Below are positions 6,689-27,933 of a stretch of 36,068 nucleotides of DNA, in pieces. The notes under the pieces were generated by a model. That model was not told the DNA's origin. It did no database searches and saw only the letters and a program-made list of their open reading frames with translations. How positions within the stretch are numbered: the first letter of the stretch is position 1; each line of letters opens with the position of its first letter. This DNA is from Patescibacteria group bacterium. Its GTDB lineage: Bacteria; Patescibacteriota; Minisyncoccia; Phycocordibacterales; UBA9973. The position numbers and the translations under genes are program-made. Location of the stretch: assembly GCA_043818335.1 (NCBI GenBank), contig JBDRFV010000004.1, forward strand, positions 1 to 36,068, in the 5' to 3' direction.

Positions 6689-6700
6689 TTTTATAATTTT

Positions 6701-6775
6701 ATGCTATTAGCACAAAAAGCAACCCCAGAAGCAGAACAAGTTCGCTACGGGGCAGGTAAAACAAAAAATAAATGA
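6701..6775 (+). CDS. Possible 24-aa ORF (MLLAQKATPEAEQVRYGAGKTKNK) overlapping the atpG start by ATGA
   Basis: Its first 20 nt nearly repeat the start of the dinD-like gene (ATGGCATTAGCACAAAAAGC vs ATGCTATTAGCACAAAAAGC). It may be a relic rather than a gene. Confidence 0.2.
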   Translation: MLLAQKATPEAEQVRYGAGKTKNK

Positions 6776-7683: not shown

Positions 7684-7688
7684 AAATT

Positions 7689-7961
7689 ATGGAAAATCTT
7701 GAACAACAATCTGAATTAAAAAAGTTAAAATTTTCAAATGAAGGCATTATGTTATATGAAGATAATCAGCTTATTTTAAGTGAAAAATTAAAAAAAGAAG
7801 GATGGATGTTGGGAATGAGTTTTCAAGATAAAAGTAATGAAAAAATTGTTTCTGATGAAATTATAAGATTAAAAAGTTTGAAATATGAAGTAATGGGATT
7901 AATGGTAAGAGGGAAGGAATACATTAAGTGTTTAATATATAGAGATACTTTAAAAAAGTAA
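7689..7961 (+). CDS. Hypothetical 90-aa protein inserted between atpG and atpD
   Basis: ORF on the operon strand, 5 nt after the atpG stop. No motif recognised. Confidence 0.45.
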   Translation: MENLEQQSELKKLKFSNEGIMLYEDNQLILSEKLKKEGWMLGMSFQDKSNEKIVSDEIIRLKSLKYEVMGLMVRGKEYIKCLIYRDTLKK

Positions 7962-7996
7962 AATTATTAAAAAATTATTATTATTAAAATTATTAA

Positions 7997-9400
<1,404 letters not shown>

Positions 9401-9410
9401 ATTAAATTAA

Positions 9411-9668
9411 ATGCATAAGATTAAATTAGCTATAATTGCAAAAGATAAAATAGCATATCAGGATGAAGCTGATGCGGTTTTTGTACCTACGCAAACTGGA
9501 TTGATAGAAGTTTTGCCAGAACATATGCAGTTAGTTTCAGCTTTGCAAAAAGGAGAAATAATAGTTAAAAAAGGAAACGAGTCTAAAAAATTTAAAGTTT
9601 TGTCTGGTGTGCTAGAAGTTAGAAAAAATAGTAACGTAATTATTCTGGCTGATATAGAAAAAGCCTAG
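9411..9668 (+). CDS. atpC: F0F1 ATP synthase subunit epsilon, short form (85 aa, beta-sandwich only)
   Basis: Position after atpD and a pattern like the epsilon N-terminal domain. The protein ends where the C-terminal helical hairpin would normally begin. Confidence 0.75.
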   Translation: MHKIKLAIIAKDKIAYQDEADAVFVPTQTGLIEVLPEHMQLVSALQKGEIIVKKGNESKKFKVLSGVLEVRKNSNVIILADIEKA

Positions 9669-9718
9669 CCCATAGGCCAATGGCCGAGGGAAGAATAATT
9701 TTTTACTAGAATTTAAAT

Positions 9719-10159
9719 ATGATTATAACAAGCTCTCAGTTTAGAAATACAGAAGAAATTCCAAGCAAGTTTACTTGCGACGGTTTAGGAATTAATCCAG
9801 ATTTATTAATTAAAGATGTGCCAGAAAATGCAAAAAGTTTAGCTTTGATTGTTGACGATCCAGACGCGCCAAGTGGCACTTGGGATCATTGGGTTATTTG
9901 GAATATTGATCCAAAAATATCTGGCATTCCAGAAAATAGCACACCTAACGGCGCTGTTGTTGGGAAAAATAGCTGGCCGACAAATAAATTTGGCGCGCCA
10001 TGTCCGCCAAATGGTTCCCATAGATATTTTTTTAAACTTTTTGCTTTAGATATTATTTTAAATATTCCAGAAAGTTCTGGCTCTGCTAAATTAGTAAGTG
10101 CGATGCAAGATCACATTCTCGCACAGACTGAATTAATGGGGAATTATAGTAGGAAATAA
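9719..10159 (+). CDS. YbhB/YbcL family PEBP (Raf kinase inhibitor-like) protein
   Basis: Motifs DDPDAPSGTWDHWVIWNI and GSHRYFFKLFALD. Confidence 0.9.
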   Translation: MIITSSQFRNTEEIPSKFTCDGLGINPDLLIKDVPENAKSLALIVDDPDAPSGTWDHWVIWNIDPKISGIPENSTPNGAVVGKNSWPTNKFGAPCPPNGSHRYFFKLFALDIILNIPESSGSAKLVSAMQDHILAQTELMGNYSRK

Positions 10160-10162
10160 AAA

Positions 10163-10198
10163 AACCTCACCAGACGACCCGCGTCATCGATGAGGTTT
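10163..10198. terminator. GC-rich nested hairpin between convergent genes
   Basis: Outer stem aacctca/tgaggtt encloses inner stem gacg-acccg-cgtc. An A-run lies before it and TTT after it, so it could act in both directions. Confidence 0.6.
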
Positions 10199-10350
10199 GA
10201 AACTTGCAGATAGTTACCTAAGTTTGCCTACCCAAAACTACTTCGGCACTTTTCTACATTTTATGGAGATTCATTTTCTATAATAAATTAAAAGTTTGAA
10301 AAAGTTAAATTTATTATATTAGGCTGATTTAGCATATAAAAAAATAATTT

Positions 10351-10947
10351 TTACATCCAGTCTTTTTCTATACCTAAATAAATAACATAACAAGTGTCAA
10401 AATTTTCTAAATTACCATTGCCGTGTTTATTTAGGGTTTCTTGGAGGATCTCTAGTCTCTTTTGCTCAATTTTTTCATCGTTATTAAATTTAGATAAAGA
10501 ATAAGGATAAAAAGAACTTAATGTTGTACATTCTCGCCACCATTTTTTTGAAAGAATCCAGTAGCGTAAAATATTACTTGAGCTGTCTCTTATTTTATGA
10601 CCAATAACCTGAAGAGATGCTGGATCAACTTCATATTTATGAAGGTCCCAGTAAGTACTTTTTGCTTTCAGCATTTCTTTTAATTCAGGATAGTCATTTT
10701 CCTGAACAGTTCCATTTGTATCATACCAAAAAACATATTCCCAAGGATTATTTGTAGTATATTGAAATGAAAGAGGAATCCAACTTTCTTTTGGGTCATT
10801 AAAGTTAGTGATGAAATCGCTCAAATAAGATTTTTCGCGATAAACTGCTTTGAAGACATGTTTTTCTGAGTTTTTTTCACAACTCACTGCGGTAAATAGT
10901 AATATTATTACTATTATTACCTCAAAAAAAATTACCAACTTTTTCAT
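10351..10947 (-). CDS. Hypothetical lipoprotein (198 aa)
   Basis: Signal peptide ending in the lipobox-like LFTAVSC. The rest is Trp/Tyr-rich with no recognised domain. Confidence 0.6.
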   Translation of the reverse strand: MKKLVIFFEVIIVIILLFTAVSCEKNSEKHVFKAVYREKSYLSDFITNFNDPKESWIPLSFQYTTNNPWEYVFWYDTNGTVQENDYPELKEMLKAKSTYWDLHKYEVDPASLQVIGHKIRDSSSNILRYWILSKKWWRECTTLSSFYPYSLSKFNNDEKIEQKRLEILQETLNKHGNGNLENFDTCYVIYLGIEKDWM

Positions 10948-14888: not shown

Positions 14889-15001
14889 AAGGATTATAAG
14901 TTGTTTTTATAAGTTTATAATGTTTTAATAATATCATGCATGGGGAAGATAGGAAATGGGGGAATTTATGGTGTTGGTGGGTGGAAAATAAAGGTTAAAA
15001 A

Positions 15002-15010
15002 TGTTATAAT
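15002..15010 (+). promoter_or_regulatory. Extended -10 box TGTTATAAT upstream of hsdM
   Basis: Exact TGnTATAAT 14 nt before the ATG at 15025. TGGAAA lies 17 nt upstream as a weak -35. Confidence 0.5.
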
Positions 15011-15024
15011 CACTGCATTAATTT

Positions 15025-16476
15025 ATGTTTGAACAATCATTTAAAAATATAGATAATATTCTACACACAGATTCTGGTTGTGGCACTGAGCTTGATTATA
15101 TTGAACAGACTTCTTGGATTTTATTTTTAAAATACCTTGATGATTTAGAGGAAACTAAAAAAACAGAATTTGCTCTTGCTGGTAAAAAATATAATTATAT
15201 TCTATCTCCTGAATATCGTTGGGATACTTGGGCTTGTCCAAAAACTAAAGATGATAAATTAGATCATAATAAAATATTAAGTGGTGATGATTTAAATAAT
15301 TTTGTAAATAATAAACTTTTTTCATATCTTAAAAAATTTAGATCCGAAGAACCAAATTCAATTGAATATAAAATTGGTGAAATTTTTCATGAGCTAAAAA
15401 ATAAAATTTCCAGTGGTTATAAATTACGAGAGATTTTAAATATTGTTGATGGTATGCATTTTCGTTTACATGAAGAAAAACATGAACTTTCTCACTTATA
15501 TGAAGCTAAAATAAAAAATATGGGAAACGCTGGTAGAAATGGTGGGGAGTACTATACACCACGACCTCTTATTAAAACTATTGTTAAAGTAGTCGGTCCT
15601 AAAATCGGAGATACTATCTATGACGGAGCTTGTGGTTCTGCTGGGTTTCTAGTTGAAGCTTATAACTATCTTACAGAGAATCAATCTAAGCTTTCGCCAA
15701 GTCAGATGCAGACACTTCAAAATAAAACTTTTTATGGAAAAGAGATAAAATCTCTAGCATATATTATTGGTATTATGAATATGATATTGCATGGTATTGA
15801 AGCACCAAATATAAGACACATGGATACTCTCTCAGAAAATATTAATGATATTCAAGAGAAAGATAGATATAATATAATTTTAGCTAATCCTCCATTTGGA
15901 GCAAAGCTTGGACGCGAAATTCAGCAAAATTTTCCAATCAAATCAACTTCGTCTGATAATCTATTTTTACAACATTTTATTAAAATCCTAAAAGCTGGAG
16001 GTAGAGCAGGAATAATCATTAAAAACACTTTTCTTTCTAACACTGATAATGCGTCTGTTTCTTTAAGGAAGCTTTTATTAGAGAATTGTAATCTTCATAC
16101 AGTATTAGATTTGCCCGGTGGAGCGTTTCAGGGGGCAGGAGTTAAAACTGTAGTTCTATTCTTTGAGAAGGGGGCTCCAACTAAAAAAGTTTGGTTCTAT
16201 CAACTTAATCTTGAGCGTAATCTTGGTAAAGGTAATCCTTTAAATGAAAAAGATTTAGCTGAATTCGTTAAACTTCAAAAGACTAAAGCCGATAGCGATA
16301 ACTCTTGGAGTATAGATATTAAAGACGTAAATAAAGAAACTTTTGATTTGTCTGTTAAGAATCCAAGTAAGGGAGGAGAAGTTGTCCTAAGAGAGCCTAA
16401 GGATATTTTAGAAGAGATGGATAAGTTGGATAAAGAAAGTGAAAAAATATTATTAACAATAAAGTCTAAAATATAA
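15025..16476 (+). CDS. hsdM: Type I restriction-modification system, DNA methyltransferase subunit M
   Basis: GEYYTPRPL, AdoMet motif DGACGSAGFL and catalytic NPPFG. HsdM-type N-terminus (EQTSWILFLKYLDD). Confidence 0.93.
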   Translation: MFEQSFKNIDNILHTDSGCGTELDYIEQTSWILFLKYLDDLEETKKTEFALAGKKYNYILSPEYRWDTWACPKTKDDKLDHNKILSGDDLNNFVNNKLFSYLKKFRSEEPNSIEYKIGEIFHELKNKISSGYKLREILNIVDGMHFRLHEEKHELSHLYEAKIKNMGNAGRNGGEYYTPRPLIKTIVKVVGPKIGDTIYDGACGSAGFLVEAYNYLTENQSKLSPSQMQTLQNKTFYGKEIKSLAYIIGIMNMILHGIEAPNIRHMDTLSENINDIQEKDRYNIILANPPFGAKLGREIQQNFPIKSTSSDNLFLQHFIKILKAGGRAGIIIKNTFLSNTDNASVSLRKLLLENCNLHTVLDLPGGAFQGAGVKTVVLFFEKGAPTKKVWFYQLNLERNLGKGNPLNEKDLAEFVKLQKTKADSDNSWSIDIKDVNKETFDLSVKNPSKGGEVVLREPKDILEEMDKLDKESEKILLTIKSKI

Positions 16477-16481
16477 TTTTT

Positions 16482-16964
16482 ATGGCTGATTTAAATTTAA
16501 TTAAGGTGGAGAATAAGTTTGAAAATGGTTCTCTTGATTTTCTAAATCCAATAAATTGGTTTAGGAAAAAATACACAAAAGATAGTGTAAATATTTTATT
16601 CATTGATGACCTAGATATGCCAGTTGTGGAAAGTTTAAAGAAAGCCCACTTTAAAGTTAAAAAGGTTAGAGATGTTAAAGATGTGGATGATGCGGAAGTT
16701 AAAAATGCTCAGATAATTTTTGTCGATTTTGATGGAGTTGGAAAATTTGTGTCCCCCCAACATCAAGGTGCTGGTTTGGTTAAGGAATTAAAAATAAAAT
16801 ATAAATCTTCTAAATATGTTGTTTTTTATACAGCTCAACCTAATATACCTACAGACACAATAATGAGTTCCATGTTTAATATGGCAGATGCAAGAATGAG
16901 AAAAGATTCAGATGTAACAGATTTTACAGAACAAATACGTGAAGCCCTAAAAAAGTTAAAATGA
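16482..16964 (+). CDS. Receiver (REC)-like domain protein embedded between hsdM and hsdS
   Basis: 160 aa. ILFIDDLD (D42, D43), IIFVDFDG (D82/D84), VVFYTAQ (T117) and RMRKDS (K141) follow the order and spacing of CheY-like key residues. Assignment by eye only. Confidence 0.55.
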   Translation: MADLNLIKVENKFENGSLDFLNPINWFRKKYTKDSVNILFIDDLDMPVVESLKKAHFKVKKVRDVKDVDDAEVKNAQIIFVDFDGVGKFVSPQHQGAGLVKELKIKYKSSKYVVFYTAQPNIPTDTIMSSMFNMADARMRKDSDVTDFTEQIREALKKLK

Positions 16965-17956
16965 TTTTTTTTGAAGTAAAAGATAATAATGGAAAAATTA
17001 TTGCAGGTAATATGCAAGATTTTTCTGGAAGGAATAAGTTTGAAAACAATAAAAATTTTTCTGAAAATAAAAATGGAAAGGGGTTGAAGGGTATTCACGA
17101 AATTATAGAAAATGTTAGTCTGTGGGTAATCATTGAAGATGAGTATGATTTATTAAAAAGCTCAAAACTTCTTAAGAAAACTATTACTCTGTATAGAGTT
17201 ATTGCTCTTGGTGTATATAAACAATACAAAAAAGAGATTAACGCATATGCACATATATTAAACACAATTCAAGCACAAATTAGACAACAGTTAGATAACT
17301 TTGCTGATAATAAAGAGTTTTTCGGGGAAACATATACTGATTCAGTAGAAAAGATATCAAAAATTATAAATGATGATAAAGAATCTGCAGCTGATCTAAT
17401 CTGTTATATACAAAAGAGAATTATAGATATGAGGGCACATCTTCTTGGTGTTGAAATAATTAATTCAGGTGAAGAATATGAAATAAAACCAATGGTAGTT
17501 AGTTTGAAAAGAGCAATTTTAAATCAATGCACTCCATTTTTAGAAGAATTTGAAAAAAACATGATTAACATAAAATTCTTTTTTGGAGATGAATGTGAAA
17601 CTAAGGTTGATAAAAATATGTTTAGTCTCATTATGTATAATTTTTTTTCTAATGCAACAAAATATACTAAACCGAATAGTGAGATAAGGTTTAATTACTC
17701 AAATGATCTAAAAAGCCTTGATATTTCTATGATAAGTTTAAGAATGGAAAGGCACGAGCTTGCAGATTTATCCATGGATGGAGTGCGAGGGCAACATGCA
17801 AAAAATATACCAGGTAAAGGAATTGGTCTATTTGTTATACAAAAAGCTTTAGAATTGATGAAAAAAGACAAAATGTATATATCACCAAATTACGAAAAAG
17901 TTTTTTATGAGGATGATCTTACTTATAATGAGAATCATTTTAAATTTGTATTATGA
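16961..17956 (+). CDS. Cytoplasmic histidine-kinase-like (GHKL) protein embedded between hsdM and hsdS
   Basis: 331 aa with no TM helix. N-box MYNFFSNATKYT (N231), G2-like GKGIGLFVIQ, and a candidate H-box AYAHILNTIQ (H98). No clear DxGxG G1 box. ATGA overlaps at both ends. Confidence 0.6.
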   Translation: MIFFEVKDNNGKIIAGNMQDFSGRNKFENNKNFSENKNGKGLKGIHEIIENVSLWVIIEDEYDLLKSSKLLKKTITLYRVIALGVYKQYKKEINAYAHILNTIQAQIRQQLDNFADNKEFFGETYTDSVEKISKIINDDKESAADLICYIQKRIIDMRAHLLGVEIINSGEEYEIKPMVVSLKRAILNQCTPFLEEFEKNMINIKFFFGDECETKVDKNMFSLIMYNFFSNATKYTKPNSEIRFNYSNDLKSLDISMISLRMERHELADLSMDGVRGQHAKNIPGKGIGLFVIQKALELMKKDKMYISPNYEKVFYEDDLTYNENHFKFVL

Positions 17957-19104
17957 AAACTAAATGGCAGACAAAAAAATTTGGAGAAGTTTGTGATTTT
18001 TATAATGGAAAAGCACATGAGAAAGTTATTGATGCAAACGGCAATTATATCGTAGTAAATTCAAAGTTTATATCTTCTGATGGTGAAAAATATAAAAAAA
18101 CAAAAAAAGCACTTTTCCCGTTAATTAAAGGTGATATTGTAATGGTAATGAGTGATGTTCCAAGTGGAAAAACCTTAGCTAAGTGTTTTATTATAGATAA
18201 AGAGAATACATACACCTTAAATCAGCGAATTTGTGCCATTCGTTCTAAAGTATTTGAGACAAGATTTCTATATCTTCAACTCAACAGACATAAATATTTA
18301 TTGAGTTTTGATAATGGAGAGAATCAAACAAATCTTAGAAAAGATGATATTTTAAATTGTCCATTACTTGTTCCACCTATTTTAGAGCAAAAACATATAA
18401 TAAAAACTCTAGATGAAATGTTTGAAAAAATTAAAAAAGCCAAAGAAAATACTGAAAAGAATCTACAAAATTCTAAGGCACTTTTTGAATCGTATTTACA
18501 GGATATTTTTACGAACCCAGGAAAAGATTTAGAAGAAAAGAAATTAGGAGATGTTTGTGATTTTGTACAGGGTATTCAGGTTGACGCAAAACTTCAAAGT
18601 GAAATAAAAAAAGAAAACCAAATAAGATTTTTAAGAATAATAGATTTTACGCAAGGTGATGAATTACCTCGTTATATAGATAACCCAGGTGAAAAATATA
18701 TAATTAACTCAAATGATATTTCATTAGTTAGATACGGGGCATCAACTGGTTTTGTATGTAAGGGATTGAACGGAGTATTGGCTAATAATCTATTTAGGGT
18801 GATACCAAAAAATAACAAAGAAATATCTAATGAATATTTATATATTTTTTTAATGTCTCCTGTTTTTCAAAATTCAATTAAAGCAAGTATGGGTGGAACA
18901 GCAATGCCAGCGATAAGTTTTGGTTTAATAAAAGATATAATAATTCCATTAATGTCATTTTCTGAACAAAAAGCTATTGTCAAAAAACTTGATGAGCTTT
19001 CAAATCAAACTAAAAAACTAGAAGTTATTTACAAACAAAAGCTAGCAGATTTAGAAGACTTAAAGAAGTCGGTTTTAAAAAAGGCTTTTGTAGGGGAGTT
19101 ATAG
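17953..19104 (+). CDS. hsdS: Type I restriction-modification system, specificity subunit S
   Basis: Two target-recognition halves each open with KKFGEVCDF / KKLGDVCDF. Each is followed by a conserved helical spacer (EQKHIIKTLDE..., EQKAIVKKLDE...). Confidence 0.9.
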   Translation: MKTKWQTKKFGEVCDFYNGKAHEKVIDANGNYIVVNSKFISSDGEKYKKTKKALFPLIKGDIVMVMSDVPSGKTLAKCFIIDKENTYTLNQRICAIRSKVFETRFLYLQLNRHKYLLSFDNGENQTNLRKDDILNCPLLVPPILEQKHIIKTLDEMFEKIKKAKENTEKNLQNSKALFESYLQDIFTNPGKDLEEKKLGDVCDFVQGIQVDAKLQSEIKKENQIRFLRIIDFTQGDELPRYIDNPGEKYIINSNDISLVRYGASTGFVCKGLNGVLANNLFRVIPKNNKEISNEYLYIFLMSPVFQNSIKASMGGTAMPAISFGLIKDIIIPLMSFSEQKAIVKKLDELSNQTKKLEVIYKQKLADLEDLKKSVLKKAFVGEL

Positions 19105-19153
19105 GAATAGAGACTCCACACTAAGGCATATATAGGTAATACAAAAGTAAAAC

Positions 19154-19200
19154 AGTTTGTATACAAGTGTTGACCTAATATATACAAACTAGGGTATTTT
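19154..19200 (+). promoter_or_regulatory. Perfect 10-bp inverted repeat AGTTTGTATA-N17-TATACAAACT enclosing TTGACC
   Basis: Arms at 19154-19163 and 19181-19190. TTGACC at 19170-19175 is followed 19 nt later by TATTTT (19195-19200). Candidate operator/promoter. Confidence 0.4.
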
Positions 19201-19213
19201 GTATCTATGTAGA

Positions 19214-19282
19214 GTAGTTATGAACAGTGAATGAGTAGATTGATGTATTTTTGGGTAGATTTAGTGGCTAGTTGTGTAGATT
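19214..19282 (+). repeat. Four phased direct repeats GTAG(A)TT at 19214, 19235, 19255 and 19276
   Basis: Spacing is 21, 20 and 21 bp, about two helical turns. A tandem GATAGTAT GATAGTAT follows at 19285-19300. Confidence 0.6.
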
Positions 19283-19291
19283 TAGATAGTA

Positions 19292-19300
19292 TGATAGTAT
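19292..19300 (+). promoter_or_regulatory. Extended -10 box TGATAGTAT, 6 nt before the ATG at 19307
   Basis: Hexamer TAGTAT at 19295-19300, spacer taaaat, then ATG. Confidence 0.4.
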
Positions 19301-19306
19301 TAAAAT

Positions 19307-20026
19307 ATGGAAGAAAAATTATTAACAATTGGTCAAGCCGCTGAATATCTTGGGGTTTCTTTGAATACTCTTCGTCGTTGGGACGAAAATGGTAAATTGG
19401 TTGCTATTAAAAAAGATGGTGGAACTCATCGATATTATCGTGAAAAAGATTTAGAAATATTTACCAGTGATTTAATGAGTTTTGCTTCTGAGTGGATTAA
19501 AACAGGAGTCGAATTTCCAGGAACATTTTTTTGTCCTACAAGTTCAATTTTTAATGCTAGACTAACAAAAATGGAATATGCATTAATGCAGAAACCAGGG
19601 TTTGAAAAGTTATATTCTTTGATTGTTCTTCTTGCTGGAGAAATCGGTGATAATTCATTTGCTCATAATATAGGAAAATGGCCAGATACAGTGGGAATTT
19701 TTTTTGGTTATGATTTAGAAAAAAGAATTATCGTACTAGCTGATCGAGGATTAGGTATTTTAGAAACATTACGGAAAGTCAGACCAGGACTTTCTAGTCA
19801 TGTAGAAGCAGTCAGAGTGGCATTTACTGAATTTATTTCTGGCAGGGCTCCAGAGAAACGCGGAAATGGTCTAAAGCTTGTTCGTGAAGTAATTACAGAA
19901 AATCCAATTGATTTATTTTACACAACTGGTGATGCTGAAGTAAGAATGAAAGGTTCGGACAAAGCATTTCATGTTATGCGTGGTCAGCATATAGTGAGAG
20001 GTTGTTTAGCAAAAATAGAATTTTAA
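19307..20026 (+). CDS. MerR/excisionase-type HTH fused to an anti-sigma-kinase-like GHKL ATPase domain
   Basis: N-terminus LTIGQAAEYLGVSLNTLRRWDENGKL. The C-terminal half has GEIGDNSFAHN (N-box-like), ADRGLGI (G1-like) and RGNGLKLV (G2-like). Confidence 0.6.
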   Translation: MEEKLLTIGQAAEYLGVSLNTLRRWDENGKLVAIKKDGGTHRYYREKDLEIFTSDLMSFASEWIKTGVEFPGTFFCPTSSIFNARLTKMEYALMQKPGFEKLYSLIVLLAGEIGDNSFAHNIGKWPDTVGIFFGYDLEKRIIVLADRGLGILETLRKVRPGLSSHVEAVRVAFTEFISGRAPEKRGNGLKLVREVITENPIDLFYTTGDAEVRMKGSDKAFHVMRGQHIVRGCLAKIEF

Positions 20027-20046
20027 AATTTTAATAAATAAAAAAT

Positions 20047-20337
20047 ATGAAATTACAACTAGGAAAATTTGGCAAAACATTAATATCACGGGAATTAGGG
20101 AGTGAGGCTCTTAAGGCATTTCAGTCAACACTGCGTGAGCTTTCTAAAGATGAAGAACTTGAAATAGATTTTTCTGAGGTATTAACGTTGTCACCTTCAT
20201 GGGCTGATGAATTTTTAAGTCCACTGCTTGATATTCTTAATGATCGCTTGATTTTATTATCTAGTGATAATCTTTCAGTACAAGCAACACTTAAAATTCT
20301 TAAAGAGGTTAATAAGCGACCATTTAAAATAAGATAA
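20047..20337 (+). CDS. STAS-like (DUF4325-like) small protein
   Basis: 96 aa. The core EIDFSEVLTLSPSWADEFLSPLL resembles the DF-x-V-x3-S-x-S-F-x-DE pattern of STAS-like/anti-sigma-antagonist folds. Confidence 0.55.
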   Translation: MKLQLGKFGKTLISRELGSEALKAFQSTLRELSKDEELEIDFSEVLTLSPSWADEFLSPLLDILNDRLILLSSDNLSVQATLKILKEVNKRPFKIR

Positions 20338-20342
20338 ACTTT

Positions 20343-22700
20343 ATGAACGAATCAGAAACACGAGCAGAATACATTGACCCAAAACTTAAAGCGAGTGGCT
20401 GGGGTGAAGTGGAAGGCTCAAAAATTCTTCGAGAATTTCGTATTACAGATGGAAAAATTTTAACTGGTGGAACGAGAAGTAAACCTGAAATTGCTGATTA
20501 TGTTTTAATATATAAAAATAGAAAGATTGGAGTTGTAGAAGCTAAAGCAGAAAATTTACCAATGACTGAAGGAGTAGCTCAAGCTAAAACTTATGCAGAA
20601 AAGTTGCATATTGATTACACATATTCAACAAACGGAAAAGGAATTTATGAGATTTCAATGAAAACAGGAGAAGAGAAAGAAATTGAAAAATTTCCAACAC
20701 CTGAAGAACTTTGGAATAAAACTTTTTCTGATCAAAATGAATGGAAAGAAAAATTTGATAATATTGCCAACGAAGGCGAATATGGCAAGCGTTATTATCA
20801 ACAAATAGCTATTAGTAATGTTTTAAATGCTATTGCAGAAGATAAAAAGAAAATACTTTTAACAATGGCTACTGGAACTGGAAAAACCGCTGTCGCTTTT
20901 CAAATTGCTTGGAAACTTTTTCAAACTAGATGGACTTTAAAAGGTGATGGTGAACGACGTCCAAGAATATTATTTTTAGCTGATAGAAATATTTTAGCTG
21001 ATCAAGCATATAATGCTTTTTCTGCTTTTGATAAAGATGCATTAGTTCGTATCAATCCTTTAGATATTCGCAAGAAAGGTGGAGTGCCGATGAGTAATAG
21101 TATTTATTTTACAATTTTTCAAACTTTCATGAGTGGGGCGAATGATACACCATATTTTGGAGATTACCCAAAAGATTTTTTTGATTTTATCATTATTGAT
21201 GAATGTCATCGTGGTGGTGCAAATGATGAAAGTAATTGGCGGGGAATTTTAGAATATTTTTCTCCCGCAGTTCAATTAGGATTAACCGCTACTCCAAAAA
21301 GACAAGACAACACTGATACTTATAAATATTTTGGTGAGCCAGTTTATATTTATTCTCTTAAAGAAGGAGTGAATGATGGATTTTTGACACCATTTAAAGT
21401 TAAGCGAATAAAAACTACTTTAGATGATTATGTTTATACTTCTGATGATCAGATTATTGAAGGAGAAGTAGAAGAAGGAAAAATTTACGAAGAGTCTGAT
21501 TTTAATCGAGTTATAGAAATAAAAGAACGTGAATCTAAAAGAGTTCGTATAGTTTTAAATGAAATTAATCAAAATGAAAAGACAATTATATTTTGCGCTA
21601 CTCAAGATCATGCTTTAGCTGTCCGTGATTTAATAAATCAAATGAAAGACAGTAAGGATCCAAATTATTGTGTTCGTGTAACTGCGAATGATGGATTTCG
21701 TGGTGAACAATATTTGAGAGAGTTTCAAGACAATGAAAAAACAATTCCAACGATTTTAACTACTTCTCAAAAACTTTCTACTGGAGTAGATGCTCGTAAT
21801 ATACGAAATATTGTTTTGATGAGACCTGTAAATTCAATGATTGAATTTAAACAGATTATTGGGAGAGGAACTAGACTTTTTGATGGTAAAGAATATTTTA
21901 CTGTTTATGATTTTGTTGACGCTTATCACCATTTTGCTGATCCAGAATGGGATGGTGATCCAGTAGTAGAGATTTGTTCAAATTGTGGAAAAGATCCCTG
22001 TGAGTGTGAAAAACAGCCTCCAAAAGTATGTTCTGTATGCAATAAAAGACCTTGCGAGTGTGAAAAACCACCTAGAATTTGTCCTGTATGCAAGAAAGAC
22101 CCATGTGAATGTGATGCAAAGAAAAAAATAAAAATAAAATTAAGAGATGGAAAAGAAAGAGAAATTCAACACATGATTTCTACTTCATTTTGGGGAGCAG
22201 ATGGAAAACCTATTTCTTCTGAAGAATTTATTACTAAAATATATGGCGTATTACCAGACTTCTTCAAGAATGAAGATGAATTAAGAATAATTTGGTCTAA
22301 TCCAATAACAAGAAAAGAATTTTTACAAAGACTTTTTGATTTAGGAATTGATTTAGAACAATTAGATAATATTCGAAAAGTAGTTAATGGAGAAGATTGT
22401 GATTTATTTGATGTTCTTTCATATTTGTCATACCACACACCATTAATTACTAGACAGCAAAGAATAAATAATACAAAAGAAAATATTTTTGCTGGAGTTG
22501 ATGAAAAGAATAAAGAATTTTTAGATTTTGTTTTATCTAAGTATGAAGAAAAAGGAGTAGAAGAATTGGATGAAGAAAAATTACCACAATTACTAAATCT
22601 TAAATATCATGCAATTTCTGATGCAATAAATATTCTTGGTGATGTTGATTTAATCCGTTCAACCTTTTTTGATTTTCAAGAACATTTGTATAGTAAATAA
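20343..22700 (+). CDS. hsdR: Type I restriction-modification system, restriction/helicase subunit R
   Basis: N-terminus ESETRAEYIDPKLKASGW with the nuclease core ADYVL...GVVEAKA. Helicase motifs TGTGKT and DECHRG plus later motifs. Cys-rich insert at residues ~545-591. Confidence 0.93.
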   Translation: MNESETRAEYIDPKLKASGWGEVEGSKILREFRITDGKILTGGTRSKPEIADYVLIYKNRKIGVVEAKAENLPMTEGVAQAKTYAEKLHIDYTYSTNGKGIYEISMKTGEEKEIEKFPTPEELWNKTFSDQNEWKEKFDNIANEGEYGKRYYQQIAISNVLNAIAEDKKKILLTMATGTGKTAVAFQIAWKLFQTRWTLKGDGERRPRILFLADRNILADQAYNAFSAFDKDALVRINPLDIRKKGGVPMSNSIYFTIFQTFMSGANDTPYFGDYPKDFFDFIIIDECHRGGANDESNWRGILEYFSPAVQLGLTATPKRQDNTDTYKYFGEPVYIYSLKEGVNDGFLTPFKVKRIKTTLDDYVYTSDDQIIEGEVEEGKIYEESDFNRVIEIKERESKRVRIVLNEINQNEKTIIFCATQDHALAVRDLINQMKDSKDPNYCVRVTANDGFRGEQYLREFQDNEKTIPTILTTSQKLSTGVDARNIRNIVLMRPVNSMIEFKQIIGRGTRLFDGKEYFTVYDFVDAYHHFADPEWDGDPVVEICSNCGKDPCECEKQPPKVCSVCNKRPCECEKPPRICPVCKKDPCECDAKKKIKIKLRDGKEREIQHMISTSFWGADGKPISSEEFITKIYGVLPDFFKNEDELRIIWSNPITRKEFLQRLFDLGIDLEQLDNIRKVVNGEDCDLFDVLSYLSYHTPLITRQQRINNTKENIFAGVDEKNKEFLDFVLSKYEEKGVEELDEEKLPQLLNLKYHAISDAINILGDVDLIRSTFFDFQEHLYSK

Positions 22701-22715
22701 GAAATTAATTTAAAA

Positions 22716-22724
22716 TGCTATAAT
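22716..22724 (+). promoter_or_regulatory. Extended -10 box TGCTATAAT, 6 nt before the ATG at 22731
   Basis: Hexamer at 22719-22724, spacer taaccc, then ATG. Confidence 0.5.
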
Positions 22725-22730
22725 TAACCC

Positions 22731-23144
22731 ATGATCTTAAATTTAATTTGTTTAGCCTTATCAGTAGGTGGGTTATATATCTCATATAGAATCTATAAGG
22801 AAAAGCATTCTGGCAAGCCGATGATTTGTCCCTTGAATGGCAAATGTGAAATTGTTCTAACTAGCAAATATGGAAAAATCGCTGGCATTGGGCTGGAATA
22901 TTTTGGAATGCTTTTCTATGGAATTATTTTAATTGGAAGCAATATATTGTTGGCTGAAGTTTGGTATTCAGGGCAGGTTAGTCTTATTTTATTTATAGTT
23001 GCCTGTGGCGGAATGTTGTTTACTGTTTACTTAACAATTATTCAGAAATTTGTATTGAAAAGCTGGTGCACTTGGTGTCTGTCTTCTGCTTTCACCACTA
23101 GTTCTGTTTTTGTTGTTTTAATAATTAAAATGTTATTAAAATAA
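22731..23144 (+). CDS. Vitamin K epoxide reductase (VKOR) family membrane protein
   Basis: Four hydrophobic helices, loop cysteines CPLNGKC and the active-site-like CTWC in the last helix. Confidence 0.7.
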   Translation: MILNLICLALSVGGLYISYRIYKEKHSGKPMICPLNGKCEIVLTSKYGKIAGIGLEYFGMLFYGIILIGSNILLAEVWYSGQVSLILFIVACGGMLFTVYLTIIQKFVLKSWCTWCLSSAFTTSSVFVVLIIKMLLK

Positions 23145-23153
23145 AATCAAATT

Positions 23154-23181
23154 TTGACATAATGCTTTTTTGTGGTAAGAT
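23154..23181 (+). promoter_or_regulatory. Promoter TTGACA-N16-TGgTAAGAT of small-protein cassette A
   Basis: Exact -35 hexamer and an extended -10-like box. Copy B has a parallel element. Confidence 0.55.
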
Positions 23182-23228
23182 TTAAGTAGAAATTATTTGT
23201 TTTTATTAATTAAAAAATAGGAGGTAAA

Positions 23229-23426
23229 ATGGCAACTCAAAAAGCCAAGAAATCAAAGAAATCTCCCCAGAGATTTTTTCTTTTTTTTAAACCGTTAAAA
23301 AAGCAACTTGGGAAACAGCTCCCAATCTTTGCCGGCACAAAAAATGAAGCCAACGGTTTTGCATTATCTAATTTTACAATAGATGATCTTGCGGAGATTG
23401 AGGAATCACAGCCTCTTCGTCCTTAA
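23229..23426 (+). CDS. Small basic/acidic bipartite protein, copy A (65 aa)
   Basis: Preceded by a perfect AGGAGG, which is rare in this window. Paralog of 26636..26830. Confidence 0.7.
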   Translation: MATQKAKKSKKSPQRFFLFFKPLKKQLGKQLPIFAGTKNEANGFALSNFTIDDLAEIEESQPLRP

Positions 23427-23444
23427 GTATCATAGACAAAATAC

Positions 23445-23478
23445 AGCCGTGTTGTTCATTCAGCATGGCTTTTCTTTT
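23445..23478 (+). terminator. Terminator of cassette A
   Basis: agccgtgttg-ttcatt-cagcatggct (10-bp stem with two G-U pairs) followed by TTTT. Confidence 0.65.
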
Positions 23479-23483
23479 GCCTG

Positions 23484-23492
23484 TGTTATAAT
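23484..23492 (+). promoter_or_regulatory. Extended -10 box TGTTATAAT, 6 nt before the GTG at 23499
   Basis: Hexamer at 23487-23492, spacer taatta, then GTG. Confidence 0.5.
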
Positions 23493-23498
23493 TAATTA

Positions 23499-24467
23499 GT
23501 GAAAAAGAAAAATATTAAAAATAAAAAGTTGATTATTTTTCAAGCAAAATCTGGAGCTATTGAACTTCGAGGTGACTTTAAACGTGAAACCGTATGGGCT
23601 ACACAGGCTCAAATAGTTGAACTTTTTAGGGTTGATCAATCAGTAGTTTCTCGCCATATTAAGAATCTTTTTAAAGATGGAGAAATAAAACAAAAAAGCA
23701 ATATGCAAAAAATGCATATTGCAAATTCAGATAAACCTATAACCCTTTATTCTCTTGATGTTATTTTAGGAGTAGGCTATAGAACAAATTCAAAAATAGC
23801 TATAGAATTTAGAAAATGGGCAACAAAAACTTTAAGTAATTATATAGTAGACGGTTATGCGATAAACAAAAATAGAATTGCAAAAAATTATGATGAATTT
23901 TTGAAAACAGTAGAAAATATTAAAAATATTTTGCCATCTGGAACGGCTATAGATAATAAAGATGTAGTCGATTTAATTTCTCTTTTTGCTGATACTTGGC
24001 TTTCTTTAGATGCTTATGATAAAGAAATTTTTCCTAAAGGAAAATTAACAAGAAAAAAGGTTACTTTTACTGCTCAAACAATTTCAAAAAATCTATCACA
24101 ATTTAAAATAAGTTTATTAGAAAAAGGTGAAGCCAGCGATATTTTTGGAATAGAAAGAGAAAAGGGAAATGTTTCTGGAATTATTGGAAATGTAATGCAA
24201 TCTTTTGGTGGAAAAGAATTATACTCAACTATTGAGGAAAAAGCTGCACACCTGCTTTATTTTATGGTTAAAAATCATCCTTTTATTGATGGCAATAAGC
24301 GTAGTGGCGCATTTGTTTTTGTGTTGTTTTTACAACAAGCAAAAGTTTTAAATATCAGAAAAATTACACCATCCGCTTTAACTGCGCTTACTATTATGGT
24401 TGCAGAGAGCAACCCTAGTCATAAAGAAAAAGTTGTTAAATTAATTTTGGACTTAATTTCTAGATAA
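23499..24467 (+). CDS. RhuM-like N-terminal domain fused to a Fic/DOC domain
   Basis: The N-terminal half has ETVWATQAQIVELFRVDQSVVSRHIKNLF...AIEFRKWATKTL (RhuM-type). The C-terminal half has the Doc-type motif HPFIDGNKRSG. Confidence 0.8.
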   Translation: MKKKNIKNKKLIIFQAKSGAIELRGDFKRETVWATQAQIVELFRVDQSVVSRHIKNLFKDGEIKQKSNMQKMHIANSDKPITLYSLDVILGVGYRTNSKIAIEFRKWATKTLSNYIVDGYAINKNRIAKNYDEFLKTVENIKNILPSGTAIDNKDVVDLISLFADTWLSLDAYDKEIFPKGKLTRKKVTFTAQTISKNLSQFKISLLEKGEASDIFGIEREKGNVSGIIGNVMQSFGGKELYSTIEEKAAHLLYFMVKNHPFIDGNKRSGAFVFVLFLQQAKVLNIRKITPSALTALTIMVAESNPSHKEKVVKLILDLISR

Positions 24468-24479
24468 TTAGTATAAAAA

Positions 24480-24488
24480 TGTTATAAT
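24480..24488 (+). promoter_or_regulatory. Extended -10 box TGTTATAAT
   Basis: 40 nt upstream of the ATG at 24529. The paralogous box lies at 27523-27531. Confidence 0.45.
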
Positions 24489-24528
24489 TAACATATTAGA
24501 AAAGGTGTATTAATTTACAATAATTATT

Positions 24529-24888
24529 ATGAAAACAAAAGTATTTTTTATTGTGGCGAAAGTTAGTGTAATTTTAATAGCGCTTTTTACTACTATTTTT
24601 AGAGTTACAGAAATTGTGCTTTTTAAAGGTACAGAGGGGTATTCATTGGCAACCAATGTTTCTGGAATGTTAGTTTTATTAGCTTTACTTATAGTTTTTT
24701 ATTTTGCTTTACAAATAAGAAGAAAGTGGGGTTTTTGGTATAGTATCTTTATGTCATTTTTCTTGCTTTTCGCTTATTTATTTAAAACTCCTTTTAATTG
24801 GTTCTACGCTGGAGTTGTGGTTCTTTCTGTAGTTTTGATTGTTTCTTTGTTTATTATTAAAAAAGATTTTAAGAAAATAGTAAAATAA
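24529..24888 (+). CDS. Hypothetical multi-pass membrane protein, copy A (119 aa)
   Basis: About 100 of 119 residues are identical by eye to 27574..27933. Confidence 0.7.
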   Translation: MKTKVFFIVAKVSVILIALFTTIFRVTEIVLFKGTEGYSLATNVSGMLVLLALLIVFYFALQIRRKWGFWYSIFMSFFLLFAYLFKTPFNWFYAGVVVLSVVLIVSLFIIKKDFKKIVK

Positions 24889-26557: not shown

Positions 26558-26586
26558 TTGACAGTTTGTTTTTAATATGCTATTAT
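26558..26586 (+). promoter_or_regulatory. Promoter TTGACA-N17-TGcTATTAT of small-protein cassette B
   Basis: Exact -35 hexamer, 17-nt spacer and an extended -10. Confidence 0.6.
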
Positions 26587-26635
26587 TTTAGTAGAAATTA
26601 TTTGTTTTTATTAAATAAAAAATAGGAGGTCTAAA

Positions 26636-26830
26636 ATGGCTAAAGGAAGTAGGAAATCAAAGAAATCTCCCCAGGGATTTTTTCTTTTTTTTAAACCGTT
26701 GAAAAAGCAACTTGGGAAACAAATCCCAATTTTTTCGGGCTCAAAGAAAGAAGCTGACGGCTATGCGCTGTCTAATTTCACAAAAGACGAGCTTGCGGAG
26801 ATTGAGGAATCACAGCCTCTTCGTCCTTAA
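26636..26830 (+). CDS. Small basic/acidic bipartite protein, copy B (64 aa)
   Basis: AGGAGG lies 6 nt upstream. Paralog of 23229..23426. Confidence 0.7.
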   Translation: MAKGSRKSKKSPQGFFLFFKPLKKQLGKQIPIFSGSKKEADGYALSNFTKDELAEIEESQPLRP

Positions 26831-26848
26831 GTATCATAGACAAAATAC

Positions 26849-26882
26849 AGCCGTGTTGTTCATTCAGCATGGCTTTTGTTTT
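26849..26882 (+). terminator. Terminator of cassette B
   Basis: Same hairpin sequence as 23445-23478. Confidence 0.65.
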
Positions 26883-26887
26883 GCTTG

Positions 26888-26896
26888 TGGTATAAT
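26888..26896 (+). promoter_or_regulatory. Extended -10 box TGGTATAAT
   Basis: 40 nt upstream of the ATG at 26937. Confidence 0.45.
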
Positions 26897-26936
26897 TAAA
26901 CTATTAGAAAAGTTATTTAAATTTTTGTTAATTGTT

Positions 26937-27530
26937 ATGAAAAAGAAAAAAATAATTATAATAGTGCTTATTATTATCGCAGTTTTAGTAGTTTTATTTA
27001 CAGTTCGAATTCCTAAACAAAATAAAACATCTGTAGAGCAAACTGGTTTAATTAATGAAGAAGAGAAAAAGATAGTAACTGATGATTTTGAGATTGTTCT
27101 TCCTGCGGGCTGGGAGAAAACTACACCGGCGATGGGAACTTCGGCAATGGCCGTTAAAATTAATGAAGATTTAAACGATCCTACAGCGCAGAAAATTAAT
27201 TTTAGAAGTTATTTTGCTGTAAGTTATGACACACTTCAAGATAAAACTATGCCCGAATATCTAGAAATTCTTAAAAATGGAGTAAAGCAGACTGCTTCAG
27301 GTGTTGTCTTAACTAAAGATGAAGATTTAACAATAAATAACAAACTAGCTCATGTTATAGAAGCAAAAATAGCTCAGCAGGGAGCAGATTTTAAAGTTTT
27401 ACTAATAATAATTACTGGACAAGAAAAAGATGTTTGGGTAATGTCTTTTAACACAACTCAAGGCAAATGGGAAGAATACAAAGATGTTTTTTATGGTATA
27501 GCTAATAGTTTTAAGTTAAAAATGTTATAA
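26937..27530 (+). CDS. Membrane-anchored exported protein (197 aa), PsbP/DcrB-like pattern
   Basis: I chose the internal ATG of track ORF 26712..27530. It follows the terminator and promoter and begins MKKKKIIIIVLIIIAVLVVLF. The longer form would overlap the small gene and its terminator. Confidence 0.65.
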   Translation: MKKKKIIIIVLIIIAVLVVLFTVRIPKQNKTSVEQTGLINEEEKKIVTDDFEIVLPAGWEKTTPAMGTSAMAVKINEDLNDPTAQKINFRSYFAVSYDTLQDKTMPEYLEILKNGVKQTASGVVLTKDEDLTINNKLAHVIEAKIAQQGADFKVLLIIITGQEKDVWVMSFNTTQGKWEEYKDVFYGIANSFKLKML

Positions 27531-27531
27531 T
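27523..27531 (+). promoter_or_regulatory. Extended -10 box TGTTATAAT
   Basis: Overlaps the stop codon of the preceding gene, 42 nt upstream of the ATG at 27574. Confidence 0.45.
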
Positions 27532-27573
27532 TTAGTATATTAGAAAAGTTTTATTAATTAAAATAAATATATT

Positions 27574-27933
27574 ATGAAAACAAAAATATTTTTTATCGTG
27601 GCGAAAGTTAGTGTAATTTTAATAGTATTATTTACAACTGTTTTTAGAGTTACAGAAATAATACTTTTCAAAGGTACAGAAGGTTATTCATTACTTTATA
27701 ACATTTCTGGAATGTTGTTTTTACTTGCTTTGTTAGCAGTTTTTTATTTTGTTTTACAAACAAGAAAGAAATGGGGGTTTTGGTATAGTATTATTATGTC
27801 ATTTTTCTTGCTTTTAGCTTATTTATTTAAAACTCCTTTTAATTGGTTCTATGCTGGAGTTGTGATTCTTTCTGTAATTCTAATTATTTCTTTATTTATT
27901 ATCAGGAAAGATTTTAAGAAGATAATAGTATAA
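27574..27933 (+). CDS. Hypothetical multi-pass membrane protein, copy B (119 aa)
   Basis: Paralog of 24529..24888. Confidence 0.7.
   Translation: MKTKIFFIVAKVSVILIVLFTTVFRVTEIILFKGTEGYSLLYNISGMLFLLALLAVFYFVLQTRKKWGFWYSIIMSFFLLLAYLFKTPFNWFYAGVVILSVILIISLFIIRKDFKKIIV

Follow-up and report, generated by a model that had tools for sequence, protein, structure and literature searches.

A type IB restriction-modification operon from a Patescibacteria bacterium with two signalling-type gene pairs lodged between its subunits

We analyzed a 36,068-nucleotide (nt) stretch of DNA from a Patescibacteria group bacterium (GCA_043818335.1, contig JBDRFV010000004.1, positions 1–36,068 of the forward strand), which is called the window below. 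It holds a type I restriction-modification (R-M) operon in which two pairs of signalling-type genes are lodged between the hsd genes: ORF2 and ORF3 (pair 1), a receiver (REC) and a histidine kinase, between hsdM and hsdS, and ORF5 and ORF6 (pair 2), a helix-turn-helix (HTH) protein with a GHKL-like domain and a STAS-like protein, between hsdS and hsdR. What are such genes doing inside an R-M operon? We think it reasonably probable that an intact type IB R-M operon has here taken in two independent cassettes, of which pair 2 serves as a local controller; any individual step of the mechanism outlined below is held with much less confidence. The locus is not a new kind of system. Rather, PDC-M43, an embedded candidate that is already catalogued, occurs in it together with a kinase/STAS pair that is a new, minimal variant of recently described regulators.

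The three hsd genes are all intact, full-length, and typical. HsdM matched N6_Mtase (1.9e-64), HsdM_N (1.1e-8), and the PADLOC model MTase_I (1.3e-155), while HsdS matched Methylase_S in two stretches (1.3e-33) as well as the Specificity_I models of PADLOC. In HsdR, we found the domains ResIII, Helicase_C, EcoEI_R_C, and HSDR_N_2, and the protein matched the NCBIfam model for R subunits of the EcoAI/FtnUII family (NF046051) over its full length (residues 1–784), scoring 831 bits where the cut-off is 550. The R subunit thus exceeds the family cut-off, and the operon also encodes a separate M subunit and an S subunit that has two target-recognition domains, which identifies the system as type I R-M, type IB (EcoAI).

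On the plus strand, the seven open reading frames (ORFs) run hsdM, REC, histidine kinase, hsdS, HTH-GHKL-like, STAS-like, hsdR. Junction sequences, read directly, show a gap of 5 nt between hsdM and ORF2 and a 4-nt ATGA overlap at both the ORF2/ORF3 and the ORF3/hsdS junction; the gaps farther on are 202 nt (hsdS/ORF5), 20 nt (ORF5/ORF6), and 5 nt (ORF6/hsdR). An earlier sequence-only reading of this DNA had given the same order, strand, and gaps, all of which proved exact when the ORF coordinates and junctions were read. No membrane segment was predicted in any of the four inserts. The window is AT-rich (~30% GC), and the relatives of its genes come from assemblies of the candidate phyla radiation (CPR)/Patescibacteria. 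The junctions are AT-rich as well, and no Shine-Dalgarno-like sequence was seen ahead of any of the seven genes (junctions within 16460–22740).

Table 1. Features of the operon, in window coordinates
Feature	Coordinates	Strand	Description
Promoter-like site 5' of hsdM	14982..15010	+	TGGAAA, 17 nt, TATAAT with TG extension; 10/12 matches in consensus scan
hsdM	15025..16476	+	Type I methyltransferase subunit, 483 amino acids (aa)
ORF2	16482..16964	+	Single-domain receiver (REC) by model, ~35-aa N-terminal extension; PDC-M43A match
ORF3	16961..17956	+	Soluble, histidine kinase-like; PDC-M43B match
hsdS	17953..19104	+	Specificity subunit with two target-recognition domains
Locus-specific spacer	19105..19212	+	108 nt; palindrome TTGTATACAA and a 9-bp inverted repeat
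Conserved leader of the ORF5-ORF6 module	19213..19306	+	
ORF5	19307..20026	+	HTH, helical linker, GHKL-like domain
ORF6	20047..20337	+	96 aa, STAS-like (DUF4325), invariant SPSW motif
hsdR	20343..22700	+	Restriction/translocase subunit, EcoAI (type IB) family

A receiver-kinase pair between hsdM and hsdS

ORF2 (160 aa) had no match in Pfam or NCBIfam. Its AlphaFold model, built from a 29-sequence alignment, reached a predicted local distance difference test score (pLDDT) of 83.7 and comprises a (beta-alpha)5 domain after a disordered N-terminal stretch of ~30 residues. When this model was compared with the PDB using Foldseek, the top 50 matches were all response-regulator receiver domains (E ~2e-6; template-modeling scores of 0.7–0.8 on target). 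The canonical receiver residues are present: D42, D43, D82, and K141 do not vary at all, and conservation of T117 is at least 90%. There is no output domain. The predicted structure and these residues firmly support a REC receiver.

ORF3 is a soluble protein of 331 aa. The window copy falls short of the gathering score of HATPase_c (23.5 vs. 26.4 bits), but more than half of the listed homologues carry that domain (PF02518), and in NCBIfam the protein partially matched many histidine/sensor kinases. Across 32 sequences, the invariant positions include H98 in an H-box-like helix, N227 and N231 of the N box, and the G2 box G285xG287xG289; the G1 box is degenerate, with xRG in place of DxGxG. Its motifs make ORF3 very probably a histidine kinase.

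Both proteins are represented in PADLOC. ORF2 matched PDC-M43A (PDLC04646) at 9e-27, and ORF3 matched PDC-M43B (PDLC04647) at 5.1e-28 over residues 3–330 of 331; adjacent genes, with a 4-nt overlap, thus match the A and the B model, as PDC-M43 demands. Both families have few members (51 and 59 clusters, respectively) and occur on shared contigs, and an ORF2 homologue lies directly upstream of an ORF3 homologue in every locus examined. PADLOC arrived at its PDC systems by way of genes that lie embedded within BREX, DISARM, and type I R-M systems, an approach termed "guilt-by-embedding" (bioRxiv 10.1101/2024.01.29.577857). Pair 1 agrees with PDC-M43 in matching both models, in adjacency, and in being nested in a type I R-M system. 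It differs in that its CPR members make up a clade with a stable position between hsdM and hsdS; PDC-M43 for its part is a bioinformatic candidate only and is not individually described in the main text of that report. Literature searches on PDC-M43 and on DUF4325 returned nothing useful.

The contexts of pair 1 were dereplicated, and relatives of at least 58% identity were taken as a close clade. In that clade, hsdS came next after pair 1 in five of the five loci having downstream DNA. The window has hsdM, pair 1, hsdS; a Kaiserbacteria locus (L010) has XRE-HTH, hsdM, pair 1, a 164-aa gene, hsdS; and three loci (L061, L063, L064) have pair 1 followed by hsdS, the S gene of L064 being half-size. 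Between the window and L010, HsdM is 83% identical, ORF2 71%, and ORF3 61%, which argues for a long-standing association of pair 1 with this hsdM lineage. The extra gene of L010 (9003–9497), between the ORF3 homologue and hsdS, is without a Pfam match. The L010 operon opens with a 70-aa, C-protein-like HTH of XRE type, and the window is without such a gene.

Farther relatives of pair 1 lie terminally in other R-M or defence operons. Their settings include a Dam-type methylase and a PD-(D/E)XK nuclease followed by pair 1 (L065); pair 1 followed by Vsr, a C5 methylase, and a MutH-like gene (P0143 contig); XRE-HTH, EcoRI-type methylase, T5orf172, GmrSD-HNH, and pair 1 with a convergent serine recombinase, seen in three lineages (L012, L058, L071); HamA, a helicase, two small genes, and pair 1 (L073); pair 1 followed by a NERD nuclease (L069); and a Shedu-like gene with HsdR, a serine recombinase, pair 1, and SocA (L055). 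Recognisable defence genes are missing from two contexts (L072, L074), and a relative of 24% identity occupies an integrase/resolvase island in Yersinia (L075). Pair 1 is clearly drawn to defence genes, with partners that differ by clade.

The closest tested system to pair 1 is Detocs, which consists of the kinase DtcA, the stand-alone "buffer" receiver DtcB, and DtcC, a receiver joined to a cell-killing effector (bioRxiv 10.1101/2023.01.24.525353). The two share a cytoplasmic histidine kinase, a stand-alone receiver without output, and a defence context. They differ in that pair 1 has no gene for a DtcC-type receiver-effector and ORF3 has no TPR sensor; the PADLOC models for Detocs were not matched by ORF2 or ORF3 at E <= 0.01. 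By analogy with Detocs and with CapK (see below), the N-terminal domain of ORF3 (~95 residues) may sense infection or DNA damage through an intracellular cue. His98 would then autophosphorylate, and the phosphate would pass to Asp82 of ORF2. Lacking an output domain, phosphorylated ORF2 would presumably act by binding a partner. The arrangement resembles the DtcA/DtcB part of Detocs minus the effector. Since pair 1 is translationally coupled between hsdM and hsdS, it is made along with the methylase and specificity subunits.

Could pair 1 instead be a complete abortive-infection or defence system, for which the R-M operon is a landing site and a source of expression? On that account, the phosphorylated receiver is itself the effector, for example by sequestering an essential protein of the host or phage. 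The account fits the cataloguing of the pair as a stand-alone candidate system and its positions, terminal in varied defence operons or within mobile islands that carry serine recombinases or integrases, and Detocs shows that a two-component architecture can be a bona fide defence system. It fits less well with the absence of a toxic or enzymatic output domain and of detectable similarity to the Detocs models, and the regular placement of hsdS after pair 1 in the close clade suggests more than a random landing site. We give it some weight as a tentative possibility.

Pair 1 also takes its place among the cargo already known from type I hsd loci, such as PrrC in EcoprrI, the rlo genes of Campylobacter, Fic/RhuM genes, and reverse transcriptases. 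The resemblance is that accessory genes are nested between hsd subunits. The difference is that those genes are effectors, while the inserts of the window are signalling-type pairs without a recognisable effector domain. Membership in MADS was considered and rejected: the matches to mad1 (HTH), mad2 (HsdM), and mad5 (HsdS) were generic, and homologues of MAD6–8 are absent. MAD6, MAD7, and MAD8 are mandatory in MADS (bioRxiv 10.1101/2023.03.30.534895). The NCBIfam models MADS2 and MADS5 reached 86 and 51 bits, far below their cut-offs of 720 and 400, respectively.

A putative kinase/STAS pair with its own leader

ORF5 (239 aa) begins with an HTH of the MerR/excisionase type at residues 1–55 (HTH_17, 1.8e-11; MerR_1, 2.3e-10). 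After a helical linker, a GHKL-like C-terminal domain occupies residues ~100–239; its family has 289 representatives among 1.84 billion cluster representatives. In 67 diverse relatives, the invariant residues are E112, N116, H120, and N121, the box D146xG148xG150, and R185-G186-x-G188, which correspond to those of the Bergerat fold. Weak profile matches were obtained in these relatives for HATPase_c (8 of 67, best E 5e-4) and HATPase_c_2 (again 8 of 67, best E 6e-4). In an hhalign comparison with Bacillus subtilis SpoIIAB, whose sequence was entered by hand, the three boxes came into register at an E-value of only 0.06. We regard a GHKL-like domain as probable, not proven, on these motifs. The relatives of ORF5 (P0231–P0380) fall into two length classes: one of ~240–255 aa with an N-terminal HTH (MerR/HTH_17, winged-helix, or XRE), and another of ~190–200 aa that appears to lack the HTH.

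ORF6 scored 20.8 bits against a cut-off of 23 for the STAS-like family DUF4325 (PF14213). That model was matched by all 17 members of the ORF6 family that were tested (best E 3.7e-6), so that the STAS/DUF4325 assignment is supported at the family level. The family members are 96–99 aa long and share the conserved motif IDFSGVLTLSPSW; within SPSW, S51 is invariant and S49 is at least 90% conserved. The best PDB match of the family profile is a weak one (E 0.57) to the STAS protein VapS (9z7o). In this weak alignment, with an 18-residue tag offset assumed, the phospho-acceptor S48 of VapS falls within one residue of S49/S51.

The four domain guesses of the sequence-only reading have held up to differing degrees: the REC assignment is firm, the kinase assignment nearly so, STAS stands at the family level, and GHKL is backed by invariant motifs and weak profiles. 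The profile searches that it had proposed as a check recovered HTH_17/MerR on ORF5 but found no Pfam model for ORF2 and left HATPase_c and DUF4325 below threshold in the window copies.

Pair 2 is widespread and strongly conserved. ORF5 has 4297 homologous clusters, the best 120 of which are 84–89% identical to it. A scan of GTDB species genomes, which relied on exact peptide words and thus gives a lower bound, found ORF5 in at least 40 species, in lineages that include Saccharibacteria, Peregrinibacteria, Peribacteria, and Nomura-, Giovannoni-, Taylor-, Staskawicz-, Doudna-, Azam-, Komeili-, and Sungbacteria. ORF6 adjoins ORF5 in 38 of the 40 species loci, and the other two run out of DNA. Across these loci, identities are 63–90% for ORF5 and 54–88% for ORF6, with one outlier at 44%; over many CPR lineages, the two-gene module retains ~77–90% identity at the protein level. 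Synonymous divergence (dS) is 1.4 to >2 and hence saturated, nonsynonymous divergence (dN) is ~0.1, and dN/dS is ~0.05. The high identity therefore reflects long and strong purifying selection; a recent horizontal sweep is ruled out as its cause by the saturated synonymous sites. An origin of pair 2 from phages or plasmids was also rejected, since no relatives of ORF5 were found among IMG/VR viral contigs and only the HTH of ORF5 matched anything among PLSDB plasmids.

The gap of 202 nt between hsdS and ORF5 has two parts. The spacer at its 5' end was unmatched in other loci, and its RNA structure was not significant (z = -0.30 vs. shuffled). The remainder is a conserved leader with three direct repeats of TGnGTAGATT (at 19232, 19252, and 19273), spaced 20–21 nt apart. 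It also holds promoter-like elements, namely a -35-like TTGTGT (19272–19277), which the third repeat overlaps, a 17-nt spacer, and an extended -10, TGaTAGTAT (19292–19300). The -10 ends only ~7 nt ahead of the ORF5 ATG, which suggests a leaderless transcript. In an alignment of 24 leaders, the repeats and TAnnAT are kept. DNA conservation with ~45 other loci begins at 19211–19252 in most of them, and the boundaries of the module are sharp: it starts at ~19213–19236, ~75–95 nt 5' of the ORF5 ATG, and ends at ~20315–20365, at the ORF6 stop. No exact copies of the repeat were found elsewhere in the window, including upstream of hsdM. We infer that this leader is the promoter and operator of pair 2. 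The promoter-like site ahead of hsdM is a consensus match only, and promoter-like sites in the region are no commoner than chance.

The leader suggests how pair 2 could act on restriction. The HTH of ORF5 would bind the three repeats and autoregulate the pair, and the kinase domain would bind or phosphorylate ORF6 at S49 or S51 in a partner switch resembling that of SpoIIAB and SpoIIAA. The transcript that starts at the pair 2 promoter, probably a leaderless one, would include hsdR. At the ORF6/hsdR junction, no terminator-like site was detected, and 5 nt are too short for a promoter; hsdR follows ORF6 with neither between them, and the switch would therefore also set the amount of the restriction subunit. 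The sequence-only reading had held that the inserts share transcription and translation units with the R-M subunits. This stands for the translational coupling of pair 1 to hsdS and for the close spacing of ORF6 and hsdR; it must be qualified for pair 2, which brings its own conserved promoter and operator-like repeats.

The nearest characterized analogues of this arrangement are CapK and CapS, a regulator pair that responds to DNA damage. CapK, a kinase with HTH, STAS, and GHKL domains, is switched on by single-stranded DNA and phosphorylates a conserved serine of CapS; its predicted binding site for single-stranded DNA is the STAS/GHKL interface (Chambers et al., EMBO J 2026, PMC13373217). 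CapS (184 aa) is a repressor with a STAS domain and a winged HTH (wHTH, residues 112–184), and its phosphorylation de-represses the adjacent immune operon (PMC13373217). Of 443 capKS pairs, 348 precede immune operons and 88 (~20%) lie downstream of an R-M system (PMC13373217). Pair 2 resembles CapK/CapS in having an HTH-containing GHKL-type gene followed by a STAS-type gene with a conserved serine, in often lying just upstream of defence genes and beside R-M systems, and in that the downstream gene would be read from the pair's own regulated promoter. Pair 2 lies upstream of immune genes in the window (hsdR) and in L001, L018, L020, L033, L078, L079, and L085, but nine of the 14 genes that follow it closely elsewhere or here are non-immune.

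The two also differ. ORF5 appears to have no STAS domain: the stretch from its HTH to the N-box helix (~100–122) is ~45–50 residues long, predicted to be helical, and too short for a STAS domain of ~100 residues, a judgement made mainly on length, as the structure model is of low confidence. ORF6 has no winged-helix domain (96 vs. 184 aa), so that DNA binding would have to come from the HTH of the kinase. In sequence, nothing significant links pair 2 to the solved CapS structure, many neighbours of pair 2 are non-immune, and its family is centred on the CPR. By its domains, pair 2 is thus a variant of CapK/CapS and not a member, being without two of the four CapK/CapS domains. By analogy, it may follow the same logic, the HTH of the kinase having taken over DNA binding.

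Two further comparisons are pertinent. In VapKSC (PMC13373217), VapS is the best, if weak, PDB match of the ORF6 profile; pair 2 differs from that system in having no VapC/PIN toxin gene, in that ORF6 lacks the C-terminal inhibitory region of VapS, and in that VapK comprises STAS and GHKL domains with no HTH. With SpoIIAB/SpoIIAA and RsbW/RsbV, pair 2 shares a small STAS-type partner in the adjacent gene and N, G1, and G2 boxes that are in (marginal) register with those of SpoIIAB. It differs in having no gene for a sigma factor or a PP2C phosphatase and in the HTH that is fused to ORF5. In the literature, we came upon no account of a single hsd operon that holds both cassettes or of the kinase/STAS pair in this minimal CPR form. 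The sequence-only reading had stated more broadly that nothing of this kind was described, a claim that has been overtaken by the embedded candidates of PADLOC, with pair 1 as PDC-M43, and by CapK/CapS (PMC13373217).

Pair 2, its neighbours, and a possible control of hsdR

Is pair 2 tied to R-M genes wherever it occurs? The genes that flank it are almost all different among the species loci. In Pfam annotations of three genes on each side, R-M and defence genes are a minority that comprises an EcoRI-type methylase, two type IIG enzymes, two N6_N4 methylases, HSDR_N, three AbiEii, two SWI2/SNF2, two SocA, and a Schlafen-type helicase, among many unrelated genes. A co-directional gene begins within 120 nt downstream in 14 of the 36 loci with a called next gene, and five of these 14 are R-M or nuclease genes: hsdR in the window and genes in L001, L018 and L020 (both type IIG), and L033 (PD-(D/E)XK). 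Looking more widely, pair 2 stands beside an EcoRI-type methylase, GmrSD-HNH, and TIR in L001; beside a type IIG methylase, SNF2, and Mrr in L078; and beside a 1170-aa SNF2 helicase in L079. In L050, a type IC HsdR lies two genes upstream. Taylorbacteria loci have no defence neighbour of pair 2 (MacB transporter). A family of ~250-aa PDDEXK_1 proteins flanks pair 2 twice, downstream in L033 (11033–11788, with a 1-nt overlap with ORF6) and directly upstream, after HsdR, in L050 (3895–4644).

Altogether, defence or R-M genes lie near pair 2 in roughly a third of the sampled loci, a figure that is semi-quantitative and without a genome-background expectation. The enrichment beside R-M or defence genes expected by the sequence-only reading is thus seen for both pairs, though for pair 2 only in this semi-quantitative sense.

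One locus, L085, bears on whether pair 2 touches the Hsd subunits themselves. Its order is RhuM/Fic, ORF5, ORF6, a 217-aa gene, RadC, Phd, ParE, type IB hsdR, hsdM, a reverse transcriptase, two small genes, hsdS. Compared with the window, ORF5 and ORF6 share 86% and 81% identity, while the Hsd subunits share only 27–35%; this disparity argues against specific contacts between pair 2 and Hsd. L010, for its part, has pair 1, and no homologue of pair 2 was detected there. These two loci show that the cassettes assort independently. In L085 (16879–19597 of ERZ27250570 k141_737558), a 535-aa RVT_1 protein and two small genes sit between hsdM and hsdS, in the slot that pair 1 occupies in the window. 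Just downstream of the hsd operon of the window (23499–24467) is a gene for a RhuM-family protein with Fic/DOC, a 56%-identical homologue of which lies directly 5' of pair 2 in L085. The RhuM/Fic gene, the kinase/STAS module, and a type IB hsd system hence co-occur in two differently arranged loci.

These data also bear on the more integrated alternative, in which both pairs are dedicated regulators that exert phospho-control over methylation, specificity, or restriction by acting directly on HsdM, HsdS, or HsdR. The ATGA coupling of ORF2, ORF3, and hsdS and the closeness of hsdR to ORF6 are in keeping with it, as are the recurrence of hsdM, pair 1, and hsdS in the close clade (window, L010, L061, L063, L064) and the presence of pair 2 near a second type IB hsd locus in L085. 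Against it, both pairs occur elsewhere with entirely different partners or none; the disparity of identities in L085 is hard to square with co-evolving contacts; operator-like repeats are confined to the leader of pair 2 and are not found upstream of hsdM; and the hsdM/hsdS slot of L085 holds unrelated cargo. We judge this alternative unlikely. The sequence-only reading had suggested that restriction, methylation, or specificity may be under phospho-control, or that the pairs sense infection in concert with the R-M complex; a single hsd-specific signalling machine made up of both pairs must be given up, as each is an autonomous cassette that is found without hsd genes.

A different alternative severs pair 2 from restriction altogether and makes it an ancient, constrained regulatory or addiction module of the CPR, such as an anti-sigma-like switch acting in trans or a toxin-antitoxin system of kinase and antagonist. 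The dN/dS of ~0.05 is a constraint more typical of core genes, the family is very large (4297 clusters), most neighbours are non-defence genes, and the module has its own promoter, discrete boundaries, and GHKL motifs that align with those of the anti-sigma kinase SpoIIAB. Moreover, in L028 (Azambacteria, 5895–10717), pair 2 lies downstream of dnaG-rpoD, two small genes after the primary sigma factor; this proximity could be coincidence or a hint of an anti-sigma-like role. The alternative is opposed by the R-M or defence genes that lie directly downstream or a few genes off in about a third of the sampled loci and in five of six Pfam-annotated contexts, a share that looks above expectation for CPR genomes of ~1 Mb, without a background calculation. 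It is opposed as well by the closest characterized analogues, CapK/CapS and VapKSC, which are defence regulators, ~20% of them beside R-M (PMC13373217). On balance, we consider it rather improbable. A 61-nt DNA match had made L028 a candidate for a second hsdS/ORF5 junction, which was rejected, as the upstream genes are dnaG and rpoD.

In a further version, which we rate as a long shot, ORF5-ORF6 is an ancient partner switch, widespread in the CPR, in which the kinase itself binds DNA. Damage or infection would free its own promoter, making HsdR inducible while M and S are made constitutively with the His-Asp pair, and the killing arm of the system would be gated by two signalling layers.

We return to the reading that we prefer, an intact type IB operon with two embedded cassettes and pair 2 as a local controller. 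In it, two unrelated and self-contained cassettes would have been picked up independently at two inter-subunit junctions, and they need not communicate. Several observations weigh against this reading. No effector can be recognised in pair 1. The GHKL assignment is weakened by an AlphaFold model of ORF5 that showed no confident structure (pLDDT 45) and by a PDB sequence profile search with the ORF5 family that returned HTH matches or nothing, none of them for the GHKL domain; an hhalign comparison of ORF6 with SpoIIAA, whose sequence was likewise entered by hand, was not significant. The other nine of the 14 close co-directional neighbours are non-defence genes (SWIB, MnmA, cytidylyltransferase, glyoxalase, VanW, C39 peptidase, SAM methyltransferase, rhodanese, and PKD/LamG), and several pair 2 loci have a convergent gene next instead, all of which indicates that pair 2 does not serve R-M systems exclusively as a controller. 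Between hsdS and ORF5, a terminator was not detected, and hsdR may therefore also be read from the hsdM promoter. Finally, PDC-M43 and the kinase/STAS pair are candidates as regards function, and every mechanistic step given here is a proposal.

Other features of the window and the meaning of the locus

Outside the operon, the window contains a duplication of ~330 nt (23166–23495 and 26571–26899; ~87–90% identity, 3.4 kb apart). Each copy has an ORF of 64–65 aa (23229–23426; 26636–26830) after a conserved, AT-rich leader ending in AGGAGGT. An element of ~72 nt occurs three times (24480–24551, 26888–26959, and 27523–27594); it opens with TGTTATAAT, which is extended -10-like, and runs into an ORF start, MKTK/MKKK. 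From its sequence, it looks like a promoter-leader that is reused before several small genes. A tRNA-Ile (GAU) lies near the window start (112–186).

What does the operon signify for its hosts? To our knowledge, almost none of the regulatory or immune biology of the CPR/Patescibacteria, with their minimal genomes, has been tested experimentally. The notable features of the locus are the conservation of pair 2 and its own promoter, the stable placement of pair 1 at the hsdM/hsdS junction, and the possible gating of hsdR by a signal. In this hsd family, the hsdM/hsdS junction can be seen as a cargo slot whose inserts differ by genome. The operon offers a small and concrete system in which to study how accessory cassettes inside R-M operons work, and the putative phospho-relay of pair 1 can be mutated at H98 and D82. 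Pair 2 would carry the principle of CapK/CapS into the CPR/Patescibacteria in a stripped-down and extremely conserved form. If pair 2 does gate hsdR, its role would be comparable to that of the C-proteins in type II systems, with the difference that this restriction controller would respond to a signal.

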